From the NCBI GenBank assembly GCA_964342815.1, contig CAYFHS010000048.1, positions 1-20,373 on the forward strand: a stretch of DNA of 20,373 bases, in the 5' to 3' direction. The stretch's first letter is position 1, and each line of letters opens with the position of its first letter. Below, in pieces: positions 117 through 20,373 of the stretch. The position numbers and the translations under genes were made by a program. A model generated the notes under the pieces. The model saw only the letters and a list, made by a program, of their open reading frames with translations, did not search any database and was not told where the DNA came from. Source of the stretch: an uncultured archaeon. GTDB lineage: Archaea > Thermoplasmatota > Penumbrarchaeia > JASLWR01.

Positions 117-1808
117 CTATATAATACTGCAGATGTTATCATACATTGTATCCAAACTTTCCCATCGCTGTTTCTTGCTCTTTTCAAGTGCTTTTAGGAT
201 CGTTTCGTCCATACCCGGAGGGATCTCCGGATTTATACAGCTGGGCGGCTTGGGAGTTTTCTTTAGTATACACCCGATACTTCTCATCGCCGTTGTATCC
301 TGGAAGGGATTCTTTCCCGTCAACATCTCGTAGAAGAGGATCCCCAGTTGAAATACGTCAGTCCTTCTCTCGATCTTCCCGAATTTATTATTATCGAACT
401 CCTCGGGGGCCGAATAAGCATATATATTCTTGGAACCCGAGCCGCCTATCCCCGAAGCTATTACCTTCCCGATCCCCCAATCCCCGATCTTCGGTGCTCC
501 GGCTTTCGAGAAGAAGATATTTTCGGGGTTAAGGTTCCGATGAACGAAACCTTTCTCATGGGCATAGGACATTCCATGAAGCACCTTGTTCATGATATGG
601 ATCGCTTCCCCCAATGTCAACTTGTGTTTTATCATCAAATTACTCAAGCTCCCTCCGTCCATGGGTTCCGTTACGACGTGCGGCAGCGGTCGAAACTCGC
701 TGTCATAGACTTCCACTATATTCTCGTGTTTGAGCCCCTTCCACGCGTTTGCCCTGGCGACAAAATTTTTCCAGGTATCATGGTTTATTGGAACTTCTTT
801 CCTGAACTGGGGTACGTTTATGGAAACTCTCCTACCGGAGGAATCGATACCTTCGTAAATATTCGCATACGTTCCGGAATGAACTTGATTTTTGATTTTA
901 TATCTTGACAGTATTTTTCTGATAGACGATGAGGGTGGTTTGTTCCTTGCCGTGGGAATATATTTTATGTATGACCTTGACGGTACGACGACGATCTCTT
1001 TTTGGGACTTGAGTTGAGCGAGTTCGGTGCTGCTTTCCTTTTTCTTCACATCTTCTTTCTTCAAGGGAGTGGGGGTTGCTTCTGTTTTCTCGATGGTGGT
1101 CCCCATCACACTATACTGTATCTCGTAGCTCGGTTTTTCCAGAGTCCATCTGGATCCTTTGATATACGGGGATTCATTCTTTTTTTTTCTTTTCGAGGTC
1201 GAGGCCCTGTATACGTTTCGGGCGAGGTCCTTGCGGTGTTTTATCTGGACTCTAAGCTCGTCCAGATCCTTCTTTATATTTTCATATGAAATTATTGCTT
1301 TTTTTAGAGATTTAACATTTTCTTCGTTGCAATGGATATTCTCCATCAGTATCTTTTGGTGGGCGAGTGTTTTCTGGTAGATACTGGGGCTTATTCCGTA
1401 CTTTTCCACCTCATTGATCATCTGCTCGTTTTCCTTCATCCTTTCTTCCACTGTAGACCTGATATCGCGGAAAGACGTGTATGATTCATCACGTTTCCTG
1501 GTATTTAACCACCAGAAAATGTTACCCGCAAAGATGTAACCCAGCATGCCTCCTGAGAACATCTCTACGAATAGACCGGCAGTATCTCTTATCAAGTAAC
1601 TCCGGACTCCCTCGAGGACCGCACCGATTACCAACCCCGCGAGAGCCTTCTCCGAAAAATGCCTAATGGTTAAAACCAGTAAAAAAAGAGCGCCAACCCC
1701 TGCCATTACGCCCCCTGAGATTCCACCCAGAAATATACCTGCGCCTATCACCATTGCCCCGATGATCTCGATGATCACAACGAACTTCCAGCTAAAGTCC
1801 AGTTTCAT
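117..1808 (-). CDS. Membrane-anchored Hanks-type Ser/Thr kinase-fold protein (probable pseudokinase), 563 aa
   Basis: N-terminal hydrophobic helices (aa ~5-100), then a coiled coil and a Lys/Glu linker. C-terminal kinase fold with HENIV, HRNLNPEN, KIGDWG, YSAPEE, TDVFQLG, LTGKNPF. SD AGAGGT at 1820-1815, 6 nt before the ATG. Confidence 0.9.
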   Translation of the reverse strand: MKLDFSWKFVVIIEIIGAMVIGAGIFLGGISGGVMAGVGALFLLVLTIRHFSEKALAGLVIGAVLEGVRSYLIRDTAGLFVEMFSGGMLGYIFAGNIFWWLNTRKRDESYTSFRDIRSTVEERMKENEQMINEVEKYGISPSIYQKTLAHQKILMENIHCNEENVKSLKKAIISYENIKKDLDELRVQIKHRKDLARNVYRASTSKRKKKNESPYIKGSRWTLEKPSYEIQYSVMGTTIEKTEATPTPLKKEDVKKKESSTELAQLKSQKEIVVVPSRSYIKYIPTARNKPPSSSIRKILSRYKIKNQVHSGTYANIYEGIDSSGRRVSINVPQFRKEVPINHDTWKNFVARANAWKGLKHENIVEVYDSEFRPLPHVVTEPMDGGSLSNLMIKHKLTLGEAIHIMNKVLHGMSYAHEKGFVHRNLNPENIFFSKAGAPKIGDWGIGKVIASGIGGSGSKNIYAYSAPEEFDNNKFGKIERRTDVFQLGILFYEMLTGKNPFQDTTAMRSIGCILKKTPKPPSCINPEIPPGMDETILKALEKSKKQRWESLDTMYDNICSII

Positions 1809-2080
1809 CCGATAACCTCTTGTGAATTTTTACATTTGGGTCTTATCGAGCTAAACTCTCTCATGGCAATTCTCAGTTTCACACTACATAGTCGAGTTAT
1901 TATTTTCTCCCATCATTATCATATTTCTATCATTGATCAAGTCATTTTTTGAACAGTCTGTATCTAATGTCGAACGAGCACACCCTTTTTAAAACTGAAT
2001 TACATAGGTATTAACTACTCAGTGTCATATATGTAGTGAGGCACAATTATCGACACCTTTGGATTCTTTTAGTTCAGAAT

Positions 2081-2341
2081 TTAGGCAACAAGTACCGTAA
2101 CAATTTGACTTCCACGGACCTCTCCACCCTTTTCCTCCACTTTCTTCTCTCCTATAATGATGCCAAAGAAAAGTATGAACATCACGGCCACGAACGCCGT
2201 GGCATCCCTATCGAAATTTGCAGGTTTCATCATCCGACTGTTCCTGTTCATGTACCTGTTACGATAATCGGTGGAGATGATGTTCTCAACGTCTTCAATG
2301 GTTTCGAAAACGTCGCCGAGCCATGAGGAAGATGATTCCAT
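2081..2341 (-). CDS. Hypothetical small protein, 86 aa (MESSSSW...), one hydrophobic segment
   Basis: Sub-ORF of track ORF 2081..2497. ATG at 2341 is preceded by AAGGGAGAC; possible TM ATAFVAVMFILFFGIIIG. No recognisable family. Confidence 0.35.
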   Translation of the reverse strand: MESSSSWLGDVFETIEDVENIISTDYRNRYMNRNSRMMKPANFDRDATAFVAVMFILFFGIIIGEKKVEEKGGEVRGSQIVTVLVA

Positions 2342-2883
2342 GTCTCCCTTGGCGCTCGAACGGTAGGGCGACACATAGACAAAGAGCATGAGGTGATATA
2401 TGTACGACGATAGAGGAAATTTCCCGCTGCCCTGATGTGTAGTTAAGTATTTTGATGGGGACAAGGGCGACAATAAGCCGTGGAGGATGTAGATCATGAA
2501 GGCGGGGTGTGGGGTGCAGACGCGGGATTATGTTCCAAATTATTCTTTTTCCAGTCCTAGTGAGTATAATACAAGTCGATATTCTTTACTTTCACTCCCC
2601 CCACTATAACCCTTAAATATTTCTTCGACAAATCAACTTTTTCTAATATCGCCCTCGTATCCATTCCCTTAACAGCATCAGCGAAACACCCCGACATGTA
2701 ACCCAAAGAAAGATGATATTTCAAATCTCCAAATCCCCATAATTATAAGTAGATGAATGATGATTTTCCGATGAAAGCGGCCCTTCCGGATCGCTACACT
2801 TTCAAGTCAAGCTAGTACTTGGCTTTTCAAGCATTCCCACCTCGGAGGTGTCCCCCATAACCAGCATCAACCTCGATAACTTC

Positions 2884-4392
2884 ATGGAGACTGAGCGGAT
2901 ATATTCCGTGAACGAGATCACTCGTATGATCAAGTCGGTCATAGAGGATAGTGACCAGCTTCGTGATGTTGGGGTTCGAGGTGAAATTACAAATTTCTAT
3001 TTTCAACAAAATCGAGGGCACATGTATTTCGATCTTAAAAGCAAGGATTCCAAGATCAAATGCGTAAGTTTCCGGGGTATGAATAGAAATTTCAAGTTCA
3101 TGCCTGCAAACGGCATGAAAGTGATAGTGAGGGGATATGTCACCATCTACGAGGTTCGGGGCGAGTACCAGATAATGGTCAAGGATATTCGCCACGACGG
3201 AGTGGGCAATCTTCACGAAGAATACGAAAAACTGAAGGCGAAGCTGAAGGCTGAAGGGCTTTTCGATGAAGAAAACAAACTTCCCATACCACTATATCCC
3301 AAGAAGATAGGCATCGCATCGGGAGCCGAGAGCGCGGCCCTGCATGATATTCTGAAAATAATTAACCGAAGATACCCCTGTGTAGAGCTTTTTGTCGTAC
3401 CCACCATCGTACAGGGCATTTATGCAAAGGCCTCGATCATCTCGTCTCTGGAAATGCTGAACTCCCTCGATGATCTCGACGTTATAATTCTCGCAAGAGG
3501 CGGTGGTTCCCTCGAAGATCTGTGGGCTTTCAATCTGGAGCCGGTAATACGATCGGTTTTCAACTCCAGAGTACCGGTAATAACCGGAATAGGTCACCAG
3601 ACCGATTTTACTCTATGTGATTTTGTGTCCGATAGGAGAGCACCGACGCCTTCCACGGCTGCGGAAATGGCCGTTCCCGATAGATCGCAGTTACTGAAAC
3701 GGATAAATGAGCTTGAACGCGCTGCAGTACACACGGTAAAAAATACGTTGGAGAAAAGAAAATTTCACCTGGATTCACTGAAGGACCATATTCTGCTGCG
3801 GGATCCCGTTCGTCTGATTTCAGCGAGAATGCAGCATCACGATGAGATGGATTCCCGGCTGAAGCGAACTGGAAGTCTTATGCTGCAGGGATATAAGGTG
3901 CGGCTCAAGGCTTATGACCGCAGTGCCGCCTTCAAGAGACCTATGGATAATATTAGAAAGCTGAAAGGTAGCCTCGCACAGTTATTTTTTGAACTGGACA
4001 TTTATTTCAAGAACCGATTTACCGCTTCGAGGGATATGTGCAGCCTCTATACCAGCGCCGTATACCGAAATTCACCGGTGGAAATGATCCTTCGGCTAGG
4101 TGAAAGAGTTCAGTTGAACGACAAGAGATTACAGAAAAATATCACACATTTCATTAAATTTAGACAAAAAATGGTTGAGAACGGTTCCGTACTTTTAAGC
4201 TCGCTGTCTCCCGAGAGAATTCTCGATCGGGGTTACGCTCTGGTCCTCGACTCCGAAGGACGAGTTATTAGTGACGCCGAAAGAACGAATATAGGTGATA
4301 TAATAGAAGTGCGTTTACGCAGATCAAGACTGCGATCAGTTGTAAAAGACAAGGAGATAGATATACATGGCGGAAGAGATAGAAAAACTTAG
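2884..4392 (+). CDS. xseA: Exodeoxyribonuclease VII large subunit
   Basis: N-terminal OB fold (VRGEITNF...GHMYFDLK...VRGEYQI), LPIPLYPKKIGI, IILARGGGSLEDLWAFN, GIGHQTDFTLCDFVSDRRAPTPSTAAE, LSPERILDRGYALV. Start placed at ATG 2884 (METERIYSVNEIT) rather than the track's GTG 2848. Confidence 0.96.
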   Translation: METERIYSVNEITRMIKSVIEDSDQLRDVGVRGEITNFYFQQNRGHMYFDLKSKDSKIKCVSFRGMNRNFKFMPANGMKVIVRGYVTIYEVRGEYQIMVKDIRHDGVGNLHEEYEKLKAKLKAEGLFDEENKLPIPLYPKKIGIASGAESAALHDILKIINRRYPCVELFVVPTIVQGIYAKASIISSLEMLNSLDDLDVIILARGGGSLEDLWAFNLEPVIRSVFNSRVPVITGIGHQTDFTLCDFVSDRRAPTPSTAAEMAVPDRSQLLKRINELERAAVHTVKNTLEKRKFHLDSLKDHILLRDPVRLISARMQHHDEMDSRLKRTGSLMLQGYKVRLKAYDRSAAFKRPMDNIRKLKGSLAQLFFELDIYFKNRFTASRDMCSLYTSAVYRNSPVEMILRLGERVQLNDKRLQKNITHFIKFRQKMVENGSVLLSSLSPERILDRGYALVLDSEGRVISDAERTNIGDIIEVRLRRSRLRSVVKDKEIDIHGGRDRKT

Positions 4393-4636
4393 TTTCGAGG
4401 AAGCAATGTCCGAGATGGAAAAGACGGTGAAGAGTCTCGAGGAAGGAGACCTCTCTCTCGAGGATTCTCTTAAAAAGTTCGAGTACGGCATAGGCCTGTC
4501 GCGCCATCTCCATGGAAAGCTGAAATCGGCGGAACTGAGAATAAACGAACTGGTAAAGGAGAGCGGCGAACTTGTGGAAAGGCCTCTCGATATATCATTG
4601 ACGGAAGAGGATACCGGCGACGAGGGATCCCAATGA
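4367..4636 (+). CDS. xseB: Exodeoxyribonuclease VII small subunit
   Basis: LSFEEAMSEMEKTVKSLEEGDLSLEDSLKKFEYGIGL...LKSAELRI signature. Overlaps the xseA 3' end; AAGGAG upstream. Confidence 0.95.
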   Translation: MAEEIEKLSFEEAMSEMEKTVKSLEEGDLSLEDSLKKFEYGIGLSRHLHGKLKSAELRINELVKESGELVERPLDISLTEEDTGDEGSQ

Positions 4637-5427
4637 AGATCGCACTGGTCCAGACCCCATCCGTAATTGGTGAGGTTGATGCCAATATCGCTAAGATCGG
4701 GAAGTGCATGGGGGAGACCGATGCAGAGCTTTTGATATTCCCCGAAATGTTTCTCACCGGCTACAACATCGGTGACATGTTCTTTACACTTGCTCTCGAT
4801 ATCGAGGGAGCCGAGATTGAAAAGCTCGCAGCCCTTTGCCGTAATAATGAAAAATCAATTATTTTCGGTATTCCAAGGAAAGACGACGTGATACGCGGTG
4901 AAGTTCTCAACAGCTCCGTGGCAATAGGTGCGGACGGAGAGGTAACCTTTTACGACAAGTGGCATCTCCCGAACTTCGGCCCCTTCGATGAAAGGCGCTA
5001 TTTCCGGCAGGGCCATCACCTTGGAGTATTCGAGATAAATGACATAAAACTCGGCCTTATCATCTGCTATGACATCTTTTTTCCTGAACTCACCAAACAA
5101 TACGCCCTCATGGGCTGTGACGGCGTGGTCTGCATATCCGCCGCCCCGTCCATAACTTTAAGGTTTTTCGAGGCCATCGTTCCGGCCCGAGCCATCGAGA
5201 ACACTATCTTCATGATCTACTCGAACGTGATAGGTAACGAAAAGAATTTGGTCTTTAAAGGCGGGGGGCAGGTCTGGGGGCCGCGGGGCGACCGAAAAGT
5301 ACGGGCGGAAGATTTCACTGATTGTATCGTTGAGCTTGACCTTGATATGGCAGAGGTTGAAACAGCAAGGAGACTGCGCCCGGTTCTCAAAGATACCAGG
5401 ATCGAGGGGCTGTTCTCGGATGATTGA
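4633..5427 (+). CDS. Carbon-nitrogen hydrolase (nitrilase superfamily)
   Basis: Glu-Lys-Cys triad motifs IFPEMFLTGY, YDKWHLP..FDERRYF and ICYDIFFPE, plus RAIEN. ATGA overlap with the xseB stop. Confidence 0.93.
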   Translation: MKIALVQTPSVIGEVDANIAKIGKCMGETDAELLIFPEMFLTGYNIGDMFFTLALDIEGAEIEKLAALCRNNEKSIIFGIPRKDDVIRGEVLNSSVAIGADGEVTFYDKWHLPNFGPFDERRYFRQGHHLGVFEINDIKLGLIICYDIFFPELTKQYALMGCDGVVCISAAPSITLRFFEAIVPARAIENTIFMIYSNVIGNEKNLVFKGGGQVWGPRGDRKVRAEDFTDCIVELDLDMAEVETARRLRPVLKDTRIEGLFSDD

Positions 5428-7072
5428 ATTTCACGGTGAAAAGGATACTAAGTATGACGATAAGTGGTATGGGGTACCCCCCAAGGGCGAGCGACCCCTG
5501 CCCGAAAAATGGAGATTCCCCTGGGGAATATACCCACCACCGGGTAAGTGGATTTACCTCCTTGAGATACTGATGGTCATAGGGATCGAGTTCGGCCTAT
5601 GGAGTATTTACAGGTGGTTGAGCGCACCCTACATCAGTCCCTTCGGCAGTCTTAAGTTCTACATCGCCCACATCATCGCCGCCCCCACCATACACCTGGT
5701 CCCGATCCTCCTGTACTGGAAGTTCATTCTAAAGGAGAGAGGGCACCCGTTCACATTCACCCGGACCCGCATCATGAGCGGGGTCATGATCGGTCTATTG
5801 AGCGCCATTCTTTGGCGGGTTCTGGAGATGCTGACCTACGACACATTATCCGGTGTTGCAGGCGGGAGCGAATTCGGGACACTTGGATTCTTCAGCGTTC
5901 TTGATACGACCACCGTCCTTCTTTTCGCCATCATGACCTTCACTCATTTCTGTATCGTTGGGCCAGTGGAGGAGCTGCAGTTCAGGGGATTCACCCAGGA
6001 CCAGGCCGCGAGAGTGCTGCCAAACTGGCAGGCGGTGGTCTTTGCATCGATCCTGTTCGGGCTCAGTCACGTTCCCATAGCCATAACCGTTTACAAGATG
6101 CCCATCGAACAGCTCATAGTGGCCGAGATCGGGTGGATGACCGCGGGAGCGGTATTTGGCGCCCTGTACCTGTGGTCGAGAAACATATATGCTGTAATAA
6201 TAATGCACGGCATGGGGAACTGGCAGCTTTCCGTTTTCTTTTTCCAGAGCAGGGCCACTGCCGAGGGAATGAGTACAATGACGGATGTTACGGTGGGTAC
6301 GCTCACCTCCCTCATTGTGAACGCGATAATGATCATTGTTTTCTATCTAATATTCAAGTATTACTGGGAGCCGCAAAGAAAACAGAATGCAGCCATTACA
6401 CGGCCTTTTCCCATCGTCCAGAAAAGGATATTTGCCCATGATTACGGTAAAAGACCAATAAAAGCTACTTCAGTTAGACTGGCTGCGTTCAGTGTGGTGG
6501 TTTGCGGGCTCATTATGTTGGCCGCCTTTACCGTTGGGGAAACCGATTATGCCATGCTGGCTGCAATATCCGCCGAGCCATCGGAAGATATGGTTGATAT
6601 TAGCTCTTATGTGTTAGAAGAGGAAACGGTAACCGGGTCAGAGTATCTGAGCGAAGGTAATTTCATTACCATACCCTACAACTCAGAAGATGAGAAATAT
6701 ATTTCAGGGATTGCGGTAACACTCACATGGACCGATGAACCGGACATCCAACGTCTGCGGCGCTACGAGAATCAGCCGGATACTTTCTCATTGGAGCTGA
6801 ACGGTCCCAATATCACTGCTAGTGACAGCGGAGCCAATCCCCGAAATGGCGAAGGCACGATCTCGGCAGCACGGTCAATTCCATCCGAGGATATTCCCGA
6901 TATCATATCCACGGAAGGATACAATTATACGGTTGATGTGCTGATTACCATGGAGAAGGCAGGCAATTATGATGCGCGAGTTGGAGCTGGAGTGGTCAGC
7001 CTTGTGGATGGGGGGAACCAGTTTGACTACGAGATAATCATAGCTTGGTTTGTGCCCGAACGGACTCAATAA
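5420..7072 (+). CDS. CPBP (Abi/Rce1-like) intramembrane glutamic protease with a C-terminal extracytoplasmic domain, 550 aa
   Basis: Multiple TMs; motifs GPVEELQFRG, SILFGLSH and IIMHGMGN; acidic soluble domain after the last TM. Start at ATG 5420 overlaps the nitrilase stop (ATGATTGA). Confidence 0.88.
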   Translation: MIEFHGEKDTKYDDKWYGVPPKGERPLPEKWRFPWGIYPPPGKWIYLLEILMVIGIEFGLWSIYRWLSAPYISPFGSLKFYIAHIIAAPTIHLVPILLYWKFILKERGHPFTFTRTRIMSGVMIGLLSAILWRVLEMLTYDTLSGVAGGSEFGTLGFFSVLDTTTVLLFAIMTFTHFCIVGPVEELQFRGFTQDQAARVLPNWQAVVFASILFGLSHVPIAITVYKMPIEQLIVAEIGWMTAGAVFGALYLWSRNIYAVIIMHGMGNWQLSVFFFQSRATAEGMSTMTDVTVGTLTSLIVNAIMIIVFYLIFKYYWEPQRKQNAAITRPFPIVQKRIFAHDYGKRPIKATSVRLAAFSVVVCGLIMLAAFTVGETDYAMLAAISAEPSEDMVDISSYVLEEETVTGSEYLSEGNFITIPYNSEDEKYISGIAVTLTWTDEPDIQRLRRYENQPDTFSLELNGPNITASDSGANPRNGEGTISAARSIPSEDIPDIISTEGYNYTVDVLITMEKAGNYDARVGAGVVSLVDGGNQFDYEIIIAWFVPERTQ

Positions 7073-7076
7073 AATA

Positions 7077-7084
7077 TTTAAAAT
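7077..7084 (+). promoter_or_regulatory. Putative archaeal TATA box (TTTAAAAT) for a leaderless 4Fe-4S gene transcript
   Basis: Ends 26 nt upstream of ATG 7111, which has no SD; this is typical leaderless spacing. Confidence 0.4.
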
Positions 7085-7110
7085 ACGAATACTATGTCCG
7101 ACCGATCGAG

Positions 7111-7980
7111 ATGAGAATTCGTTCACTTCGTATAACATCCCAGATCTTCTTTCTAATACTGTCCATAGCAGGGATTTTCGGTATCGGGATGACCGGTCTT
7201 ATATATCCGTTCTTTTTCTGCGTCGCATGCCCTGGGGCTGTTGCGAACTGCCCCATAGGCGCTCTTCAATATGCCGTAATTGGATTCGAGAGCGGCGCCT
7301 GGTTGAAATTATCACTGTATTTATTTGGTTTTATTGCATTTCTCTCCGTTATTTTCGGAAGAGCGTTCTGCGGGTGGGCATGTCCTTTCGGAGCCCTGCA
7401 GGACCTGATTTCCCCTGTCACGAAACGCAACAATCGTTTTTTTCGAATACCCCGGATGTGGGAGGCACGGTATATGAAATACGGTGTGCTCGGTCTGGTG
7501 GTTGTGGCGGCGTGGGCGTTCAATACGAAATGGTTCTGCCTCTTCGACCCAGGGGGCATGGTGACCGCTACCATTCCGACGCTGGCCGTTTCCCGGTTCA
7601 CCGACGATGCATGGGGGAGCGGGGATTATCTTGTCATGAAGATCATCTACACGATTGTTTTTCTGATAGGAATTTTCATCATCAGCAGGGCATGGTGCCG
7701 ATTCATATGTCCATACGGAGCCATGGTGGCACCTTTCAACAAGATCTCCGTATTACATCTAAAACGCGATTCAGATAGGTGTATCAGCTGTAACCGCTGC
7801 TCTAAGAGCTGTCCCATGAACATCGACGTTGTTAGAGAAGAGCGTTCAGCCGAGTGTATCCTGTGCGGGCGGTGCGTGGAGGATTGCCCCGTGTCGTGTC
7901 TGGACCTATTCGCGTCCGGAAAGCAGGTGACGAAAGGAAATCCCAAAAAGGCAAAAGTGTCTGTCAATAATAGAATATGA
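7111..7980 (+). CDS. Membrane 4Fe-4S binding protein (NapH/MauN/YccM-like polyferredoxin), 289 aa
   Basis: CVACP..ANCPIGALQ, GRAFCGWACPFGALQD, RAWCRFICPYGA, and two CxxCxxCxxxCP clusters (CISCNRCSKSCP, CILCGRCVEDCP); several TMs. Confidence 0.9.
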   Translation: MRIRSLRITSQIFFLILSIAGIFGIGMTGLIYPFFFCVACPGAVANCPIGALQYAVIGFESGAWLKLSLYLFGFIAFLSVIFGRAFCGWACPFGALQDLISPVTKRNNRFFRIPRMWEARYMKYGVLGLVVVAAWAFNTKWFCLFDPGGMVTATIPTLAVSRFTDDAWGSGDYLVMKIIYTIVFLIGIFIISRAWCRFICPYGAMVAPFNKISVLHLKRDSDRCISCNRCSKSCPMNIDVVREERSAECILCGRCVEDCPVSCLDLFASGKQVTKGNPKKAKVSVNNRI

Positions 7981-8004
7981 ATGATGAATAAACGGAGGAA
8001 TTCT

Positions 8005-8550: not shown

Positions 8551-9525
8551 CTATATATAACTCGACGCAAACCATACGAGCGACGAAATAGCCCCCAGGA
8601 TAACCATTGCGTTTCCGAGGCTGGATTTCTTATCCCTTACTGCAAAAAACCCAAACAGACCTCCCAGTATGCCCAGCAGGACCGGGGCTGCGAACCAGGC
8701 ATAATCGAAAGCGTCCAATTCCTCGTCCCCCGGTGCTTCTGTTACTCTCTCTTCCTTCTGGACCGGAGCTTCCGGAAGATACTCCTGCCTCGCTTCGGGG
8801 AGCAGTGGTGGTTGTATCCTCGCTTTGGCGGGTTCCGGGCTTGGAATCCCGTAATCGTAGGGTTCCCTTCCCGGACCTTCTTCTTCCCAGCTATCCTCCT
8901 CCGCGTAATCCTCCCCCTCTTCCGGCCAGCTCTCCACCATTTCCTCCTCGACGAACTCGGCTTCCACCAATTTCTCCTCTTCTTCCATCTCCATCTCTTC
9001 TACCTCTTCCGCCTCCGGTTCCTCTGCCTCCTCTCCCTCTAATTGATCGGGTCCGGGAAGAATCGCATATGGTTTTTCGTAAACCTCGCCCTGGTGAAGT
9101 TTGAATGATTTCATCTCGATATTTATCGGATCGATTACCACTGCGGACTGGTATTCCTTCTTGAACATCCTGATCTGCGTGTCCTTGTCGGTGGGTGACA
9201 TGAAAGAGGTATGGCCCGGGTGGGAGTGGTACCAGCCCACCAGAAGATAATCCAATCCGTCTTTTTCGAATTTGTCCAATTTCTTGAAGAGTGGCTCGAA
9301 ACTGGCAAATTTCACCGAAACCGCCGTGGTATCGAGGTCCGAGGTGACAACATCTTCCACAACGGTGTATTCCCTGCCCTCCCACTCGTACTTGTGACCC
9401 ACCATGAAACCCATGACCTCGAGCTGGATGTCCCTGAAATCCTTGCAGTGTTTCAGCATCTTGAGGGCTGCATTCTTCTTTATGAACAGATCGATGTGTT
9501 CGTCCTCAAAGATAGGGTTGATCAC
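8551..9525 (-). CDS. JAB/MPN+ (JAMM) metalloprotease, Rpn11-like, with an acidic linker and a C-terminal two-helix membrane anchor, 324 aa
   Basis: E36 in EVMGFMVG; intact HxH-x7-S-x2-D motif (VGWYHSHPGHTSFMSPTD, nt 9228-9187); VIDP. GTG start with SD AGGAGG. Two hydrophobic segments at the C-terminus. Confidence 0.93.
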   Translation of the reverse strand: MINPIFEDEHIDLFIKKNAALKMLKHCKDFRDIQLEVMGFMVGHKYEWEGREYTVVEDVVTSDLDTTAVSVKFASFEPLFKKLDKFEKDGLDYLLVGWYHSHPGHTSFMSPTDKDTQIRMFKKEYQSAVVIDPINIEMKSFKLHQGEVYEKPYAILPGPDQLEGEEAEEPEAEEVEEMEMEEEEKLVEAEFVEEEMVESWPEEGEDYAEEDSWEEEGPGREPYDYGIPSPEPAKARIQPPLLPEARQEYLPEAPVQKEERVTEAPGDEELDAFDYAWFAAPVLLGILGGLFGFFAVRDKKSSLGNAMVILGAISSLVWFASSYI

Positions 9526-9552
9526 TGCAAATCTCCTCCTTTAATGGATAAT

Positions 9553-9690
9553 TTATAGGAATTTAGATAGGTATTCCTTCATCTTGGAAAAATCGGTCTT
9601 GCCGGGTAGATAGGAGAATTCCAGATCCTCCGGGGGCTCCTTTTCCTTCGTCTCCTTCTTTGTCTCGCTTACTATCTTGGGCAGTGCCAT
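9553..9690 (-). CDS. Unannotated 45-aa protein (MALPKIVSETKKETKEKEPPEDLEFSYLPGKTDFSKMKEYLSKFL)
   Basis: ATG lies 1 nt after the E2 stop (TGA-T-ATG), filling the gap between E2 and JAB, in the same reading frame as JAB. Below the ORF-track size cutoff. Confidence 0.7.
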   Translation of the reverse strand: MALPKIVSETKKETKEKEPPEDLEFSYLPGKTDFSKMKEYLSKFL

Positions 9691-9691
9691 A

Positions 9692-10210
9692 TCAATCACT
9701 TCTCACTATCTTCGGCCCCCCCCTGGTGGAGGATACTATGCCGGGCGGATGATAATCGTGTGTGGCGAAATACTGTGCGGCGGCCATGCAGCTTTGGGAT
9801 CCATAGGGGCTCCGCGGATTGGGCATTGACAGCAGCGATTCGATACCTTGAATGAACGCTAGAAGATTGGATTGAAAGTTCCAGGTATCGAGAAGCCGCG
9901 TGCAAACATAACCTCCGTCCTCGGGAACCATGATGTTGGGGTGAAATATATCCGTATGCCACCTGACTATCGGTTTCTGGTAAGGATAATTATTTGTTAT
10001 CTTCATGGTGAACTTGTGATTCCATGCATGGGTTATCCGGTTGTCCTTTAATTTGGGTCCCGCTATCTTTTTCATGTTTACTTCGATGGTAACGGGAAAA
10101 CCGTTCACTTCGGGATCGTCCACTAATATCTCGTGCACCAGTTTTCTTTTGCACATTGCGATCTCCTGGAGCACTCGTTTCCGTAGAAGGTCTTCGGGCA
10201 GTTGAGGCAT
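9692..10210 (-). CDS. Ubiquitin-conjugating enzyme E2 (UBC fold), 172 aa
   Basis: YPYQKPIVRWHTDIFHPNI (H90-P91-N92, nt 9943-9935), catalytic-position Cys103 in GGYVCTRLL (nt 9904-9902), W..QSNL and ESLLSMPNPRSP match the eukaryotic E2 pattern YP..PP.V.F.T.IFHPN...G.IC...L...LL..PNP.SP. Start placed at ATG 10210 (MPQLPED). Confidence 0.9.
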   Translation of the reverse strand: MPQLPEDLLRKRVLQEIAMCKRKLVHEILVDDPEVNGFPVTIEVNMKKIAGPKLKDNRITHAWNHKFTMKITNNYPYQKPIVRWHTDIFHPNIMVPEDGGYVCTRLLDTWNFQSNLLAFIQGIESLLSMPNPRSPYGSQSCMAAAQYFATHDYHPPGIVSSTRGGPKIVRSD

Positions 10211-10276
10211 ATGTTTTCTAACTCCGCACATTATTGATCGATAAAGGGAAATTATGGCAAAATCCAATTCAATGCT

Positions 10277-13731: not shown

Positions 13732-13807
13732 ATCTTAACACAATAATTTTTTCCCCAATTCCTGAACGTATGCTGGGAATTGTCTAACATAACATAGAGG
13801 AATGCAA

Positions 13808-16800
13808 ATGAATGAATTAAAAAAACCAAACCGGCCCCATAACCGATACGTTAAAATCGGAATATGGATCGTCCTGTCGGCACTAATACTGGCAGGGCTG
13901 GCAATCATCGTTGGAGTCGCCTTCGAGGAATTCGGAGGCGAGCGAGCATCCATCGAAGAAATCGTATATATGCCACAGCAGCACGATTATTCGAGAGGTA
14001 CGTCGACCTTAAGCTACTCCATGGCGGCGAGATATTCGGATGGCAGCATTGGATCCCTGCCGGATGTGAACAGGAATGAATTGTTCTTGGGAACAACGGA
14101 TACGATTAATACCGATACCGATGGCATGGATAAAGAAGACCGTACCCGAAAAACCGAAGAAGGCGCAGAATTCAATTTTTCATATACCGGAAGCGCACAA
14201 TCGTGGGAAGTGCCGGACAATGGAATCTATAAATTGGAAGTTTGGGGTGCCCGGGGAGGTTATTGTTATGCGAATTACGGAAAAGGGGGGAAAGCATGGG
14301 GTGAGCTCGAATTGACCAAGGGCGAAACCCTAAAAATCTATGTTGGTGGTAGTCCGGGCAATTCTCGTAACGGAGGATTTAACGGCGGCGGTAACAATCG
14401 AACCGGTTCAGGTGGCGGAGGAGGTGGAGGTACCGATATACGGAGAAATGGAGATGCAATGGCAAATCGTATAATCGTTGGCGGAGGAGGCGGTGGTACT
14501 GCATGTTCGTCCAATTCTCATGGAGGTGATGGTGGAGGAAACGAAGGGAAGCACGGCTATCGCTTTGGGAATTATAACGACCATTATGCCGGAGGAGGTG
14601 GCACACAGAATGGAGGAGGTCGAGCCGGGGGATGCTGCGGCGCCCAGCCGGGTCAACTTGGCCGAGGCGGAGATACTGCAACGGGGGATGATTGCGGTGC
14701 TGGCGGTGGCGGTTACTATGGTGGCGGCGGTGGCTCCAACGATTCCGGGGGCGGCGGCGGTTCATCTTATTACGCGAATCTTGATAATGGTGGAACCCAG
14801 GCCGGTGATAATGACGGCCATGGAAAGGTGAAGATCACCTTCGTTCAAGGCGGCGGCGGCTCCGCGGTATACGATTACAAATACAAGGATGGAACCGGCA
14901 TATCTAAGGATTTCACATATACCGGGGGACAGCAATCGTGGGTGGTCCCCGGTGGAACCAAGTTCATAGATGTGGACGCATTTGGTGGTGAAGGAGGGTC
15001 CGGAGGAAAGGGCGGTCAAATTAAAGCTAGACTAACGGTGACACCAGGTGAAACACTTTACATCTATGTTGGTGGAAAGGGAGCTAATCAGCACGGAAAC
15101 CGTTCCGGAGGCTGGAACGGAGGCGGCCAGGGAGGAAGTTCCAATGGAGGTCGCTACGGTGCCGGAGGCGGTGGGGGTACTGACATTCGCCGAGGCGGAA
15201 CAGGATGGGCTAACCGGATATTGGTGGCTGGCGGCGGCGGCGGTTATTACGGTGGCGGCGGCGGCGGTGCAGGTATAACGACTTGTTGTGGTGATAGTTC
15301 AAGAAACGGCAATTCTGGATCACAGGGTACTGGAGGCAAAGGTGGTGACGCACAGGATGGTTGTGCTTCTGGATACAATAATAATGGTGGTGACGGTGGA
15401 AAAGGAGGCGGGACCACAGGGGGTAATGGCGGAAGATATCGTGGATCGGGTAATCCCGGTAATGGAGGAACCCAAAACGGCGGCGGTTCCGGAGGCTCAA
15501 AGGCTGGTCAATGTGATGCCGACCAGATATCCGGTGGCGGCGGCGGTGGTGGAAGCAGCTATGCCAAATCAGGCAGCAAAAATATAAAACATACCCAGGG
15601 AGTGCATTCCGGGAACGGTAAAATTAAAATTTCGACACCTCCGGAAATCCTTGGCGTATACTATCAGGAACCGTTTTCCGATGAATTCAAGGATTCGGAA
15701 TTTGGACCTGCCTGGAGCCCTTACAGCAGCGACGATGAAAATGCCCGAAACGAGAGAATCGATACCGAACCGGGCAAGAAAGAGAAAGCAAAATTCACTT
15801 TCACCAACTGCACCCAGACCGGAAGGAACGGCCCTTCACAGGGGCAGGTAAATACAGCCTACGGCAATTCCAACTTAAATGGGAAGGTCACGGTCAGTAA
15901 TGGCGTTCAAAGTTGGGTAGTACCAGAAACCGGCAAGTATACCATCGAAGTTCAGGGTGCCGTAGGAGGCAAATCGAGATACGGCAGCGCGAATCCCGGG
16001 AAGGGGGCGAAAATGAGTGGTGAATTCAATCTGACGAAGGGTGAGACCATCTATGTTGTGGTTGGCCAGAAGGGGCTTCAGTGCCAGAGCTGGGCCAATA
16101 GTGCAAATGGAGCTGGTGGCGGTGGCGGTGGAACCTTTGTCTATAAAGCCAACAAAACCCTCCTCATCGCTGCGGGCGGTGGCGGCGGTGCCGGTCATGT
16201 CAATGCCAGAAATCCATATTACCACGGCATGGACGCTGTTACAGGGACCACGGGTACTGAAAGCAGGGGAAGAAATCCCGGTGGTTCAAACGGCAATAAC
16301 GGTAGCGGCACTTCCGGTGGAAGAGGATGGAATACGGTGAAGAATAATCCCATCGGAGAACCCTGCAGAGGCTGGGGCGAGTTCCAGGCACATGGTGGAT
16401 TTGGCGGCGGCGGCGGAAATTATTATCACGACGGCGGCGGCGGCGGTGGTTATTCCGGCGGCGGCGGTAACCGCGGCGGCGGCTCACCGACCTCATATCC
16501 GGCTGGCGGCGGCGGCGCTTCCTACAACAACGGTGCCAACAAGGATGACAAAGCCGGGGTAAATACGGAAGACGGGAAAGCCATGTTCATACAATATGAA
16601 GTAATTAACGACCCGGGTTTCGATGCATATGATGAGGAGGAACAGGGTACGACCTGCTGGGTAATGGACACTGCCGGTGCCAGAGGTGCCAACCTGAATC
16701 AGCTTCTGCTCCACATAGGCCTGGATGCCGGAGAAGGATCGGTCACAAGTTTGAAACTCTCGTTTGCAGCTGAGGTTTATGGTACTACCGAAGTAATGCC

Positions 16801-19800
16801 GGCCAGTTTCGGAGTGAATATGCTTCCCCATAACTATGACGGCGTTGCAGTGAGTATTGACAATGAGAACTGGTACAAGGTATGGTCGCCGAATTCAGCG
16901 GCAGAATGGGCATTGATCGAGAACAAAAATTTATTGAGCATTCTTCCAAATAGCTCCGTTGATGCGAAAGAAGACCTGTATATCCGGTTCCAGCAGTACG
17001 GGAGCGGCAAGATCAAAACCGAGGGAATTCTCTGGGACGAGATCTATCTCGAATCGAACGCGGATGTTGAATACATTTTCGAGGTACCGCAATTGAACAT
17101 TGGATTCGAAACGGCACCCGATCCGTTCACAATCTATGCTGAGACCCAGGGAGATCCTGATTCTGCTACCGTAAAAGTAAAGCTGTCCGGCTCTATCGGT
17201 TTCGACTGGGAAGGCGGCGCTCGTGGTCCTCGAGCCGAACCGATTGTTTACAATTTTTCAAATGCCGGGGCTTCAGGTAGATCCGGTCCTACTCAAGGCC
17301 AGGTGAATTCAGCTTATTCGAATACGAATTTAAAGGATCTGGTCACCATCAGAACCCGCGGAATACAGGAATGGAAGATACCGAAAAAAGGTGAATATAC
17401 TTTCACGGTAAAAGGGGCTGAATCTGGAACGGATCGCTATGGTGCCAATTATACCGGAAAAGGGGCCAGCATGCAAGGTACCTTCGAATTGGAAGCCGAT
17501 CAGGTCATAAAGATCCTGGTAGGCCAGAAAGGGGATAATACCGGATTTTGTTGCGGTTCGGCAGGTGGTGGCGGTTCGTTTGTGACGAAATCGGACAATT
17601 CGCCGCTGATAATCGCAGGTGGCGGCGGTGGAGCAAGAATGGATAGTGGTGGTACCAATCGTAGCTTCCAGGACGGAACTACCGGTAAAAATGGGCGAAA
17701 TGCTTATTATCGCGGTGAGAACGGTGGAACTGGAGGTACCAATGGTAATGGTGGCAGATGGAATCGGTCCGGATGCGGCGGAGGTCCGGGAGGTGGGTTA
17801 TCTGGTGATGGAGAAAATGGCGGCGGCTGCAGGGGTTCCGGAGGTAAGGCCTTTAAGAACGGTGGCGAAGGTGGTGTATCTTCTTACTGTGGTGGTACCT
17901 CTGGATTTGGCGGCGGCGGCGGAGTGGGCTGCGGCGGTGCGGGAGGAGGAGGAGGATATGGCGGTGGCGGTTCTGTTGACTGGGGAAGCGCCGGTGGCGG
18001 AGGTTCCTATAACGATGGTACGGAACAGAGCAATCAAGCAGGTGCGAATTCTGGGAATGGAAGCGTTACAGTCACATATATTGGTGGTGGAGATCCCATT
18101 GCCGAGGAGGTCAGGTTTACCTACGAAAAGGCAGAAGGTCTGGTCATTGATGGAGATGCTGACATTGAAGAAGTAACCTGGTCATCTGCAGATGAGAACG
18201 AAGAAGATGCATTACTTGATGGAGACGAGTTCGAGATCGAATTCGATCTTTCGTCCCCTGACGGGTTTTACGACAGTATCGGCCCTGCAACGGTTTCTTA
18301 CTTCTCTTGGGATGGCGATGAGATCGAATATGTTCTACCTATACCCAACTTGAGAATACAGGCTTTTTCCTATGCAAAATTGGAAGGAGAGGTTATAGCA
18401 AATAACGGTGCCGAACAGAATGATCCTGGTTCACTTTTGGCCATGGAATCATATGACGACCAGGACCCACCGGGCGTCATGCCGGGTCAGGTATTTACCA
18501 ACTGGCGTGCTAAGGACCTTGGCGACAGCGTGGAATTCATTGACGCCATAGATAATGCAACGGGTCAACCGTTCACCCACAAGAAGATAATCAGGGTTAC
18601 CGGTGGAAAACCCGGTGATACGGGAACTGTTTATACAACCCACAAGGCATCCGGGGAAGAGGATGGATACCCCGTCACCCTTGTTTCAGGTCCGGTTGCC
18701 CAGGGTAGCATCTACCAGCAGGAAACTTACGTCGTAGGTGAGACCGGTGTTATCTCAGTCGCCCTTGAGGATGATTACGGAAATGCCTGTGTCGATTGGA
18801 AGGACCGCATGTATGTGAAAGTGACCGCCGGTAAGGTGGAGTTCGAGGATAAGCTAGAAAATGATGCCACCGGAGACTACTACATGTATACTGCCAAGGA
18901 CAAGGGGGTCCATGATTTCATCATCACCCCTTTAACCTTCCATGCCATAGGCCCGACCGTCATCGAGTTCAAGACCGTATCCGTTCCCATCGGTGAGCCT
19001 GCCAGCCTCAAAGTCGTGGCGGGTCCGGTAAAATCCCTGCATGTTGACTACGACCCGGCAAACATGCCCGGATGGGATGGTTCATACTATGCCGGTGAGG
19101 AGCTGTATTTCACTATCTACGGCACTGACAAGATGGGTAACCCCTCCTCAACATATGATGCACCGATAATCGTGACCCATGATTTCAAGACCGAGAACAA
19201 GGAACTTGTTCCTGATCCGTGGCAGAGCAGTGACGGTGCAGTTATCTTGAACATGGTTGACGGTGTGGCCGCCAACTATCCCGATACGCCTATCAAGTTC
19301 TATGGTGCTGGCGAAGTAAGCCTGACATTCCGCTCGAAGGTAAATCTGGAAGGAATTAACGGATACACCAAGAAGATCACAGTGAATCCCACCTATCTTG
19401 ATCACCTGGAGGCAATGCCCGGCGGTCCTGATGCTGCGCCTGTAACGGTTGACGTGAAAGTGGGAGAAACCCAGTTCTTTTCCGTCAAGGGCTTCGACGA
19501 GTTCGACAACCCAATCGAGATCGATAGCACAACCTGGCGTGTGGATGCTGATATCAAGGCCAAGGAGACCCCCGATGTTCTGAATAATGGTGAGTTCAAG
19601 GCCATAGAGTACTTCGGCCCCAATGACGAAGGTGTCGTCTTTGACGTTGATCTGGGTTTATCCACAAGAAAAGGCAATGTTGAGGTTACTGCTGTCTGTC
19701 CCCGCGACCAGCGGGAGATAAAACGTGATATCTCAGTTCGAGTTTTAAATGACAAGGACGTGTGGCTGGATGCCAGCGATATCGAGCCTGAACATATACT

Positions 19801-20373
19801 TGCCGGACACGAGATGAACTTCAAGGCGAATATCTATTACGATATGCCCGTGACCGATCCGGGAACCAAGGACCAGGCTTCCGCCCTGGGTGATCTCTTC
19901 GAGGTCACAGTGATCGTGTCTCTCGTAGATAAGGACGGAAAGAATCCCTTCGAGCTTGTAAGGGAGCCGATCAGGTTTGAAGACCTGAACACCAATCCCG
20001 ATGGTATCGAGAGTTTCAACGTGAAGGTACCCTGGGAGAGTTTCAGCGATAACATCAAAGTATGGGAAGACGGTAACGACGACACCAAGAACTATCTGCT
20101 TGTCGAGGTAGATGAGGTTATCGGGGGAACTGACATGAAGCTCTTCGAGAAGACCAATGACAACAACCGGGTTACAGTGGAGCTGTATACCGTTGGAGCC
20201 CCTGCTGCGTCCCAGACACCGTCATTCGCCCCATCAGTTGCGGCAATGGGTATTGCTCTTCTGGGTCTCGCTGTAGGGAGCACTTTCTACTCTGGCAAGA
20301 GGCGGAAAAAAGGCTACCGAGGGGACCGCGAAGCTGTTTCTCCAGTTATCGCCATCATCCTCATGGTGGCCAT
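13808..20373 (+). CDS. Giant cell-surface protein, 3'-partial (>2188 aa): signal/TM, 4 ALK/LTK-type Gly-rich domains, jelly-roll and Ig-like/CARDB stalk, TPSF-TM-basic tail, internal class III (type IV pilin) signal
   Basis: Translated by hand in frame 2 from ATG 13802/13808 to the window end with no stop. All + strand track ORFs in this region are in other frames. N-terminus MNELKKPNRPHNRYVKIGIWIVLSALILAGLAIIVGVAF; C-terminus ...TPSFAPSVAAMGIALLGLAVGSTFYSGKRRKKGYRGDREAVSPVIAIILMVA. Confidence 0.92.
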   Translation, partial: MNELKKPNRPHNRYVKIGIWIVLSALILAGLAIIVGVAFEEFGGERASIEEIVYMPQQHDYSRGTSTLSYSMAARYSDGSIGSLPDVNRNELFLGTTDTINTDTDGMDKEDRTRKTEEGAEFNFSYTGSAQSWEVPDNGIYKLEVWGARGGYCYANYGKGGKAWGELELTKGETLKIYVGGSPGNSRNGGFNGGGNNRTGSGGGGGGGTDIRRNGDAMANRIIVGGGGGGTACSSNSHGGDGGGNEGKHGYRFGNYNDHYAGGGGTQNGGGRAGGCCGAQPGQLGRGGDTATGDDCGAGGGGYYGGGGGSNDSGGGGGSSYYANLDNGGTQAGDNDGHGKVKITFVQGGGGSAVYDYKYKDGTGISKDFTYTGGQQSWVVPGGTKFIDVDAFGGEGGSGGKGGQIKARLTVTPGETLYIYVGGKGANQHGNRSGGWNGGGQGGSSNGGRYGAGGGGGTDIRRGGTGWANRILVAGGGGGYYGGGGGGAGITTCCGDSSRNGNSGSQGTGGKGGDAQDGCASGYNNNGGDGGKGGGTTGGNGGRYRGSGNPGNGGTQNGGGSGGSKAGQCDADQISGGGGGGGSSYAKSGSKNIKHTQGVHSGNGKIKISTPPEILGVYYQEPFSDEFKDSEFGPAWSPYSSDDENARNERIDTEPGKKEKAKFTFTNCTQTGRNGPSQGQVNTAYGNSNLNGKVTVSNGVQSWVVPETGKYTIEVQGAVGGKSRYGSANPGKGAKMSGEFNLTKGETIYVVVGQKGLQCQSWANSANGAGGGGGGTFVYKANKTLLIAAGGGGGAGHVNARNPYYHGMDAVTGTTGTESRGRNPGGSNGNNGSGTSGGRGWNTVKNNPIGEPCRGWGEFQAHGGFGGGGGNYYHDGGGGGGYSGGGGNRGGGSPTSYPAGGGGASYNNGANKDDKAGVNTEDGKAMFIQYEVINDPGFDAYDEEEQGTTCWVMDTAGARGANLNQLLLHIGLDAGEGSVTSLKLSFAAEVYGTTEVMPASFGVNMLPHNYDGVAVSIDNENWYKVWSPNSAAEWALIENKNLLSILPNSSVDAKEDLYIRFQQYGSGKIKTEGILWDEIYLESNADVEYIFEVPQLNIGFETAPDPFTIYAETQGDPDSATVKVKLSGSIGFDWEGGARGPRAEPIVYNFSNAGASGRSGPTQGQVNSAYSNTNLKDLVTIRTRGIQEWKIPKKGEYTFTVKGAESGTDRYGANYTGKGASMQGTFELEADQVIKILVGQKGDNTGFCCGSAGGGGSFVTKSDNSPLIIAGGGGGARMDSGGTNRSFQDGTTGKNGRNAYYRGENGGTGGTNGNGGRWNRSGCGGGPGGGLSGDGENGGGCRGSGGKAFKNGGEGGVSSYCGGTSGFGGGGGVGCGGAGGGGGYGGGGSVDWGSAGGGGSYNDGTEQSNQAGANSGNGSVTVTYIGGGDPIAEEVRFTYEKAEGLVIDGDADIEEVTWSSADENEEDALLDGDEFEIEFDLSSPDGFYDSIGPATVSYFSWDGDEIEYVLPIPNLRIQAFSYAKLEGEVIANNGAEQNDPGSLLAMESYDDQDPPGVMPGQVFTNWRAKDLGDSVEFIDAIDNATGQPFTHKKIIRVTGGKPGDTGTVYTTHKASGEEDGYPVTLVSGPVAQGSIYQQETYVVGETGVISVALEDDYGNACVDWKDRMYVKVTAGKVEFEDKLENDATGDYYMYTAKDKGVHDFIITPLTFHAIGPTVIEFKTVSVPIGEPASLKVVAGPVKSLHVDYDPANMPGWDGSYYAGEELYFTIYGTDKMGNPSSTYDAPIIVTHDFKTENKELVPDPWQSSDGAVILNMVDGVAANYPDTPIKFYGAGEVSLTFRSKVNLEGINGYTKKITVNPTYLDHLEAMPGGPDAAPVTVDVKVGETQFFSVKGFDEFDNPIEIDSTTWRVDADIKAKETPDVLNNGEFKAIEYFGPNDEGVVFDVDLGLSTRKGNVEVTAVCPRDQREIKRDISVRVLNDKDVWLDASDIEPEHILAGHEMNFKANIYYDMPVTDPGTKDQASALGDLFEVTVIVSLVDKDGKNPFELVREPIRFEDLNTNPDGIESFNVKVPWESFSDNIKVWEDGNDDTKNYLLVEVDEVIGGTDMKLFEKTNDNNRVTVELYTVGAPAASQTPSFAPSVAAMGIALLGLAVGSTFYSGKRRKKGYRGDREAVSPVIAIILMVA
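14171..14845 (+). repeat. Gly-rich ALK/LTK-like domain, copy 1
   Basis: FNFSYTGSAQSWEVP...YKLEVWGARGG...GELELTKGETLKIYVGG...GGGGGTDIR...IIVGGGGGG...GGGGSSY...GHGKVKITF. Confidence 0.85.
14909..15634 (+). repeat. Gly-rich ALK/LTK-like domain, copy 2
   Basis: DFTYTGGQQSWVVP...DAFGGEGG...LTVTPGETLYIYVGGKG...GGGGTDIR...ILVAGGGGG...GGGGSSY...GNGKIKIS. Confidence 0.85.
15794..16597 (+). repeat. Gly-rich ALK/LTK-like domain, copy 3
   Basis: FTFTNCTQTGRNGPSQGQVNTAYGNSNL...GVQSWVVPETGKYTIEVQGAVGG...GEFNLTKGETIYVVVGQKG...GGGGGGTFV...LLIAAGGGGG...GGFGGGGG...GGGGGGYSGG. Confidence 0.88.
17249..18082 (+). repeat. Gly-rich ALK/LTK-like domain, copy 4
   Basis: YNFSNAGASGRSGPTQGQVNSAYSNTNL...GIQEWKIP...GTFELEADQVIKILVGQKG...GGGGSFV...PLIIAGGGGG...GFGGGGG...GGGGSYN...GNGSVTVTY. 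Confidence 0.88.
18730..19560 (+). repeat. Three Ig-like stalk repeats carrying a D-x-x-[GD]-N motif
   Basis: VGETGVISVALEDDYGN (~18734-18784), AGEELYFTIYGTDKMGN (~19091-19141), VGETQFFSVKGFDEFDN (~19460-19510). Followed by a CARDB-like segment ending EKTNDNNRVTVEL. Confidence 0.6.

Follow-up and report, generated by a model that had tools for sequence, protein, structure and literature searches.

The stretch of DNA analysed here (the window) is 20,373 nucleotides long and makes up the whole of contig C48 (CAYFHS010000048.1) within the 4.35 Mb genome bin, in 116 contigs, of an uncultured Thermoplasmatota archaeon (GCA_964342815.1). Its 3′ part holds a giant surface-protein gene whose open reading frame (ORF) does not stop after a tail that resembles an archaeal sorting signal, continuing instead into the signal of a type IV prepilin until it is cut by the contig end. 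A preliminary description, made from the window alone, proposed that this frame joins an adhesin and a pilin in one polyprotein that would be matured by two proteases. The features of the gene are the following, with residue numbers counted from the ATG at 13802:

13802-20371, + strand: giant surface-protein ORF of 2190 codons with no stop, its 3′ end cut by the contig end
13802-13927, + strand: putative Sec-type signal or signal anchor (basic residues, then about 25 hydrophobic ones), read from the translation
14219-14842, + strand: best-scoring ALK/LTK-type glycine-rich domain, residues 140-347, by Pfam
20216-20227, + strand: TPSF, residues 2139-2142
20219-20233, + strand: P-S-F-A-P motif, PGF-CTERM-like and abutting the helix, recognised by its conservation in fused homologs
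20237-20290, + strand: predicted membrane helix 1, 18 residues, stop-transfer from outside to inside, from the translation
20297-20311, + strand: KRRKK basic cluster, from the translation, followed by GYRGDREA
20297-20335, + strand: predicted cytoplasmic loop KRRKKGYRGDREA, comprising the basic cluster of the tail and the class III prepilin leader
20336-20373, + strand: predicted start of the mature type IV pilin helix, VSPVIAIILMVA plus 2 nucleotides of the next codon, from the score of this stub against TIGR02537 and from the paralogs

The N-terminal basic and hydrophobic stretch resembles the N-termini of homologs, and from this Sec-type signal or anchor we infer a topology in which the bulk of the giant protein lies outside the cell. 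The ORF also encodes four ALK/LTK-type glycine-rich domains (Pfam ALK_LTK_GRD, PF12810, E 3.7e-41) and about 700 residues of beta-rich repeats, and a C-terminal cassette begins with its last 52 codons. Within this segment the class III motif, DREA followed by VSPVIA, shows charged residues, Ala at position −1 and a hydrophobic helix. The predicted prepilin peptidase cut falls at the Ala/Val junction at nucleotides 20335/20336 (A2178/V2179), after which the frame reads VSPVIAIILMVA as far as 20371; the window and contig C48 both end at 20373. The resulting 13-residue stub scores 14.3 bits against TIGR02537, which is under the cut-off of 20 because the stub is truncated by the contig end, yet far above chance. 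On re-reading of the translation, the positions that the preliminary description gave for TPSF, the helix, KRRKK and the junction proved exact, as did its nucleotide position for the cut; its residue numbers for the cut, 2176/2177, count from the second Met and become 2178/2179 when counted from the ATG.

Two further sites in the genome match the last 474 bases of the window, one on contig C35 (87% DNA identity) and one on contig C9 (79%). In both of these paralogs the same frame runs through the junction and on for 164 further residues before it reaches a stop, and on C9 the gene is complete, with 2360-2363 codons. At this internal position the paralogs match Pfam Pilin_N (PF07790) with 33.2-34.1 bits (cut-off 25.2) and TIGR02537 with 38.8-40 bits (cut-off 20). 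Contig C20 starts (C20:3-194) within a third pilin copy, of which it retains the final 63 codons and the stop; this copy differs from C35 at 16 of 189 bases and from C9 at 25 of 189, all of the differences being synonymous and the protein identical. It probably supplies the end that the window gene lacks, in which case about 264 bases between C48 and C20 are unassembled. Contigs of three other DNA runs leave 20198-20373 uncovered and an RNA run gave no match there, so these data speak neither for nor against the junction. The giant ORF is confirmed to be fused in frame to a complete type IV prepilin and is no assembly artefact: the same junction in diverged paralogs bears out the earlier claim that the frame runs past the tail into a prepilin signal, and the pilin domain and stop expected downstream are present in the C35 and C9 paralogs. 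Two other candidates were considered and rejected, namely a programmed frameshift at the A6 run, where there is no in-frame slippery heptamer and neither alternative frame stops before the window end, and an internal start, for which the loop offers no ATG, GTG or TTG and helix 1 only a non-conserved Met. Directly downstream of the fused gene on C35 (locus positions 1379-8002, + strand) lies a second giant gene (2207 amino acids), which encodes an N-terminal anchor and repeated beta-rich units.

Substitutions between the paralogs are distributed unevenly along the gene. Between C35 and C9 the 164 codons of the pilin domain carry 48 synonymous differences and no non-synonymous ones, the 39 codons of the tail 13 and 2, and 180 upstream codons 66 and 47, respectively. 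Five paralogs in a second genome (GCA_964430885.1) differ from one another by 32-53 synonymous and 1-5 non-synonymous changes over 161 pilin codons. Because the differences between paralogs are almost entirely synonymous, the pilin part must be translated in this frame. It is the most constrained portion of these proteins, and it is protein-identical across paralogs without homogenisation of the DNA.

A protein search with the 203-residue cassette against 1.84 billion representative proteins returned 598 relatives, most of them free pilins 150-180 residues long. Among the 150 best of these 598, about 25 are proteins of 300-4640 residues that end in the whole cassette, helix 1 included, so that pilin signals behind a membrane helix in long proteins, a pattern that the preliminary description had suggested looking for in archaeal proteomes, do recur. 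Cassette relatives are found in Thermoplasmatota; the closest comes from a marine Thermoplasmatota archaeon, and many are from Poseidoniales (marine group II). The independent assembly GCA_964430885.1 carries three to five fused genes, three of them in tandem on one contig and further ones elsewhere. We then surveyed 301 Thermoplasmatota genomes with a profile built from 32 cassettes, and in about 50 of them, belonging to five families, a full-length cassette match ends uninterrupted ORFs of 1200-5500 residues; the cassette-bearing set includes single-contig genomes, Poseidoniales-like ones among them. One relative in the window's own family (genome G083) has nine to ten fused genes with ORFs of 1498-2424 amino acids and near-identical cassettes, spread over its contigs C26, C15, C2 and C37, with five in tandem on one contig. 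The window gene is a member of a conserved Thermoplasmatota family of giant surface proteins with one composite C-terminal cassette. The G083 gene set also resembles a multigene family of variable surface proteins that share one common C-terminal module. In public databases the giant proteins are annotated as 'archaellin/type IV pilin N-terminal domain-containing protein' or 'FlaG/FlaF family flagellin', and this architecture is not described in the literature searched, which covered reviews and censuses of archaeal type IV filaments (PMC4858521, PMC13705601), sorting signals and marine group II genomics, with subscription journals outside the search.

The order of elements in the cassette is P-[S/G/A]-F-x-P, helix 1, a charged loop ending in a class III leader, A/G followed by VSPVIA, and a pilin of 160-175 residues that consists of a hydrophobic helix and a beta-sandwich with a DxDxDG loop. 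Around the predicted cut, position −5 is K/R, −4 is D, −3 and −2 are E/D, and −1 is A/G, followed by VSPVIA. Fused prepilins (35) and free ones (97) share these preferences, with A or G always at −1 (35 of 35 in the fused set); the archaeal class III signal recognised in the preliminary description is, in other words, kept as it is in free prepilins. The window loop KKGYRGDREA aligns with MKRYSRDRNA, the leader of a free pilin encoded at C2:142717 in the same genome. This free pilin shows 31% identity over 140 residues, and its gene is 2.6 kb away from those of two T2SSF-family platform proteins and a T2SSE-family ATPase. By this comparison the cassette appears to hold a complete prepilin, leader included, in which the initiator Met alone has been replaced. 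By definition, and in searches, class III signal peptides are N-terminal; in the window gene the prepilin site comes after a membrane helix, at precursor residue 2178, and has neither the N-terminal position nor the short leader of such signals. A second context in which a class III site stands behind membrane helices is provided by P0084 and P0101, prepilins of about 215 residues with leaders of 58-66 residues and two membrane helices before a normal DEA/VSPVIA site.

Structural comparison of the pilin part is broadly in line with its sequence. The AlphaFold model of the C35 cassette contains a helix at 29-47 (helix 1, at low confidence), a helix at 64-89 and a beta-sandwich, with a predicted local distance difference test score (pLDDT) of 70 that rises to about 80 in the head. 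The top Foldseek matches are archaeal pilus subunits (8rey, 8gi2 and 8fj5; E 2e-3 to 9e-3), the matched filaments being the Cuniculiplasma filament, Natrinema PilA1 and PilA2, and the Haloferax volcanii pilus. VIA-align gave Z 7.1 for archaellins and Z 6.5-6.6 for FlaG/FlaF (5tuh, 4p94), the latter tied with archaellins and immunoglobulin (Ig) domains, and Pfam returned Pilin_N only for the pilin part of the paralogs. The modelled fold of the pilin head fits the type IV filament superfamily, with middling scores. The head also carries a conserved DxDxDG-type loop (for example DGDHDGKLSIGD at residues 341-355 of P0003) with two Asp invariant across the family, and this loop suggests a calcium-binding site.

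The tail that precedes the prepilin is conserved in a different manner. In an alignment of cassettes with 23-97% identity to the first sequence, the F and the second P of P-S-F-x-P are invariant across 32 fused homologs and the first P and S are at least 90% conserved; variants include PGFDP, PAFVP and PSFIP, and the literal PGF occurs in one homolog only. Helix 1 is free to vary in sequence, its hydrophobicity alone being kept, whereas the pilin helix is nearly invariant, and the loop after helix 1 begins with basic residues in all aligned homologs. In the window PSFAP abuts the 18-residue helix, which is followed by KRRKK, and the pattern is conserved. A motif, a helix and a charged cluster, with the motif abutting the helix, constitute the tripartite pattern of archaeosortase/exosortase sorting signals (10.1101/2023.06.07.544157). 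Among the true C-terminal tails of this genome are canonical PGF-CTERM-like PGFE/PGFG tails, one PGFEP and one PSFSP-helix-RRKK (on contig C43); the last is the sole true C-terminal PSFxP tail, with none in the 80 loci searched. Taken as sequence patterns, these features support the P-S-F-x-P tail acting like a sorting signal, while its acceptance by archaeosortase A is less certain.

Both of the enzymes that the proposed route would call for, and whose presence the preliminary description had left to be checked, are encoded in the genome, together with pilus assembly genes. There is a single A24 prepilin peptidase (C7:49175-50335; 386 residues, Arc_PepC_II 56.5 bits, with the motifs DIRTRKVPN and GGADAK), and there are five matches to T2SSE secretion ATPases and several to T2SSF platform proteins; the window itself contains no pilus machinery. 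Archaeosortase A is encoded at C30:16676-17698 (TIGR04125 102.9 bits, cut-off 75), and a second gene of the archaeosortase family lies on C20. Archaeosortases were searched for with TIGR04125 and TIGR04178, Pfam Exosortase_EpsH being too insensitive, as it missed the Haloferax control. By this search they occur in 223 of the 301 genomes of the phylum (74%) and in all of the approximately 50 cassette-bearing genomes, a co-occurrence that does not discriminate because 74% of genomes have an archaeosortase in any case and the genomes are related. The window additionally encodes a 580-residue Rce1-like (CPBP family) intramembrane protease (5330-7072, + strand), 6.7 kb upstream of the giant gene; a gene of this kind beside the fused genes is not conserved in two other genomes. 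CPBP-family enzymes have been proposed as processors of other C-terminal sorting signals.

We lean, with restrained confidence, towards a reading in which the A24 peptidase excises the pilin from the giant protein, and the remaining tail then either anchors that protein or is exchanged for a lipid by archaeosortase A. The Sec system would export the ectodomain, helix 1 would act as a stop-transfer sequence, and the pilin helix would re-insert with its N-terminus inside the cell; the topology argued for in the preliminary description (outside, membrane helix, cytoplasmic basic loop, pilin helix) holds. On the cytoplasmic face the A24 peptidase would cut after Ala2178, and the mature pilin thus freed would be available to the type IV pilus machinery for polymerisation. 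The same cut would leave a protein of about 230 kDa whose motif-helix-basic tail is truly C-terminal, and this tail might anchor the large protein as it is or, less certainly, be swapped for a lipid by archaeosortase A. Because the pilin is protein-identical in all paralogs, they would supply one common pool of subunits. The start of a type IV subunit helix is buried in the filament core, so that an N-terminally extended subunit would be unable to polymerise. Since polymerisation needs a free helix N-terminus, and since the motif is kept as in free prepilins, a cut by prepilin peptidase appears the most likely of the proposed events.

Several points weigh against this reading. Both cleavages are ones that we infer from sequence, and any functional tie between the released pilin and the adhesin would be hypothetical. 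We know of no prepilin peptidase that cuts about 2000 residues into a precursor or behind a membrane helix, and none with such an internal site was found in the literature searched. The tail gave no match to TIGR04126 (PGF-CTERM), either at E ≤ 0.1 with whole proteins or at E ≤ 1 with the excised 48-residue tail; it lacks the PGF signature, having Ser where the PGF-CTERM family has Gly; it does not stand at the extreme C-terminus, as 164 residues follow, and it would become terminal only after the prepilin peptidase cut. In Poseidoniales the loops are acidic except for RR beside helix 1. No pilus machinery adjoins the fused genes, the nearest ATPase in four Poseidoniales-like genomes being 42-47 kb away, and the middling structural matches do not separate a pilin from FlaF/FlaG. 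Finally, the globular domain is also found after other membrane anchors, namely a lipobox-like signal and polytopic N-termini, so that it is not exclusively a filament subunit. The 'complete PGF-CTERM-like tail' of the preliminary description therefore survives in its invariant motif, variable helix and charged cluster, and fails on TIGR04126, on Ser for Gly and on its position. Its two-protease route keeps the fusion, the topology, the enzymes and the conserved cleavage site in its favour, the TIGR04126 result and the hypothetical nature of the link between pilin and adhesin counting against it.

The main rival, which we regard as possible rather than probable, is an uncleaved two-helix hairpin anchor, in which helix 1 and the pilin-like helix would both stay in the membrane and the beta-sandwich would form a FlaF/FlaG-like foot beside the stalk, binding the envelope or oligomerising. 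Homologs P0018 and P0019 retain the stalk, helix 1, the loop, helix 2 and the globular domain and have lost both motifs (PSFAP and A/VSPVI), which indicates that an uncleaved hairpin form is viable; their joint loss is also expected if the two motifs work together, and PSFAP is lost wherever the cleavage motif is lost. The occurrence of the globular domain behind polytopic N-termini, and with a lipobox-like signal beside an unfused short homolog on contig C1, would likewise suit a hairpin, as would the presence of FlaG and FlaF among the best structural matches, the lack of linkage between pilus machinery and fused genes, and the identical module on many paralogs, which is equally suited to a generic anchoring cassette. 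A hairpin has, however, no obvious need of the motif from −5 to +6, which is exactly as in free prepilins across sequences that are 23-30% identical elsewhere. Moreover, the variable and weakly modelled helix 1 and the nearly invariant pilin helix show no sign of being a co-evolved pair. At the unfused locus itself (C1:233794-237045), a short surface-protein homolog of 601 residues (203-2008, + strand) with a plain helix end and no PSFAP lies tail-to-tail with a 161-residue gene (2160-2645, − strand) that encodes the same globular domain at 64% identity, a lipobox-like signal (IVMGC) replacing the pilin helix.

One may also postulate that the prepilin peptidase cut is the only one. The pilin would then be freed and the giant protein would remain a type I membrane protein on helix 1, with PSFxP serving a structural or other role and no part for archaeosortase. 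We attach limited credence to this alternative, for which the absence of a TIGR04126 match, the replacement of the signature Gly by Ser, and the small weight of archaeosortase co-occurrence when 223 of 301 genomes have the enzyme can all be cited. Against it stand the near invariance of the motif while the helix behind it varies freely, the way in which the motif abuts the helix as in archaeosortase/exosortase signals, the literal PGF in one homolog, and the true C-terminal PGFEP and PSFSP tails in the genome. By comparison, the notion that the junction is an artefact (a mis-join, a frameshift error, a missed stop between KRRKK and DREA, or a separate pilin gene with its own start), to which one might be led because the window stops 38 nucleotides past the junction within multicopy sequence and because 20198-20373 lies outside the fragmented Logan contigs of three other DNA runs, is effectively refuted by the same in-frame junction, free of internal stops, in two diverged paralogs, in independent assemblies and in single-contig genomes, by codon differences across the junction that are nearly all synonymous, and by a loop with no start codon and no conserved internal Met.

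If excision followed by tail processing is correct, it would widen the substrate range of prepilin peptidases and provide the first case of a pilin released from a polyprotein; it would also point to maturation by two proteases in a set order, the first producing the substrate of the sortase-like second. A complete class III signal is in any case conserved deep within precursors of up to about 5500 residues. More speculatively, prepilin peptidase might serve as an internal polyprotein processor in many Thermoplasmatota, with one pilin made only by excision, a cut that unmasks an archaeosortase signal, and a lipid-anchored adhesin that delivers one subunit at the same membrane site; we put this forward as a tentative extension. 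Marine group II archaea, uncultured and globally abundant, are thought to depend on particle attachment, and the fused proteins are their largest gene products.

Elsewhere in the window, on the − strand at 8551-10267, a JAB/MPN protease (324 amino acids) adjoins a ubiquitin-conjugating E2-like protein (UQ_con, 191 amino acids) beside a homolog of the DNA primase small subunit, and these genes may represent a prokaryotic ubiquitin-like conjugation module.

Among known systems, the closest parallel for the pilin part is provided by free Pilin_N/DUF1628 prepilins, such as PilA1-6 of Haloferax volcanii and those encoded at C2:142717, C2:83994 and on C52 of the same genome, which share the leader, the cleavage motif, a near-identical helix and a homologous beta-sandwich, and for which the same peptidase and assembly genes are available in the genome. 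Here, in contrast, about 2180 residues and a membrane helix come before the signal, and the preceding tail contributes its basic cluster in place of the initiator Met. That tail resembles the PGF-CTERM signals processed by archaeosortase A, as in the S-layer glycoprotein of Haloferax volcanii, in its motif-helix-basic layout and in the motif abutting the helix, and ArtA and PGF-CTERM proteins are both present in the genome; it differs in having PSFxP, in lacking a TIGR04126 match, in not being the C-terminus of the precursor, and in the acidic loops of the Poseidoniales versions. The archaellum stator proteins FlaF/FlaG (ArlF/ArlG) also combine an N-terminal hydrophobic helix with a beta-sandwich (Z 6.5-6.6), although Pfam gives Pilin_N alone for the domain described here and a full prepilin cleavage motif is present. 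Substrate-binding proteins of the Sulfolobus bindosome (PMC13705601) similarly place a class III signal on surface proteins other than classical pilus subunits, but their signals are N-terminal and the functional domain comes after the helix. The modular type IV pilins PilB and PilC of Streptococcus sanguinis (PMC8179133) likewise carry, in one polypeptide, a pilin module together with a large module of functional or adhesive role. In those proteins the extra module is attached to the pilin C-terminus and rides on the filament, whereas here it lies N-terminal to the leader, and for that reason the giant module would have to come off before the pilin could polymerise.

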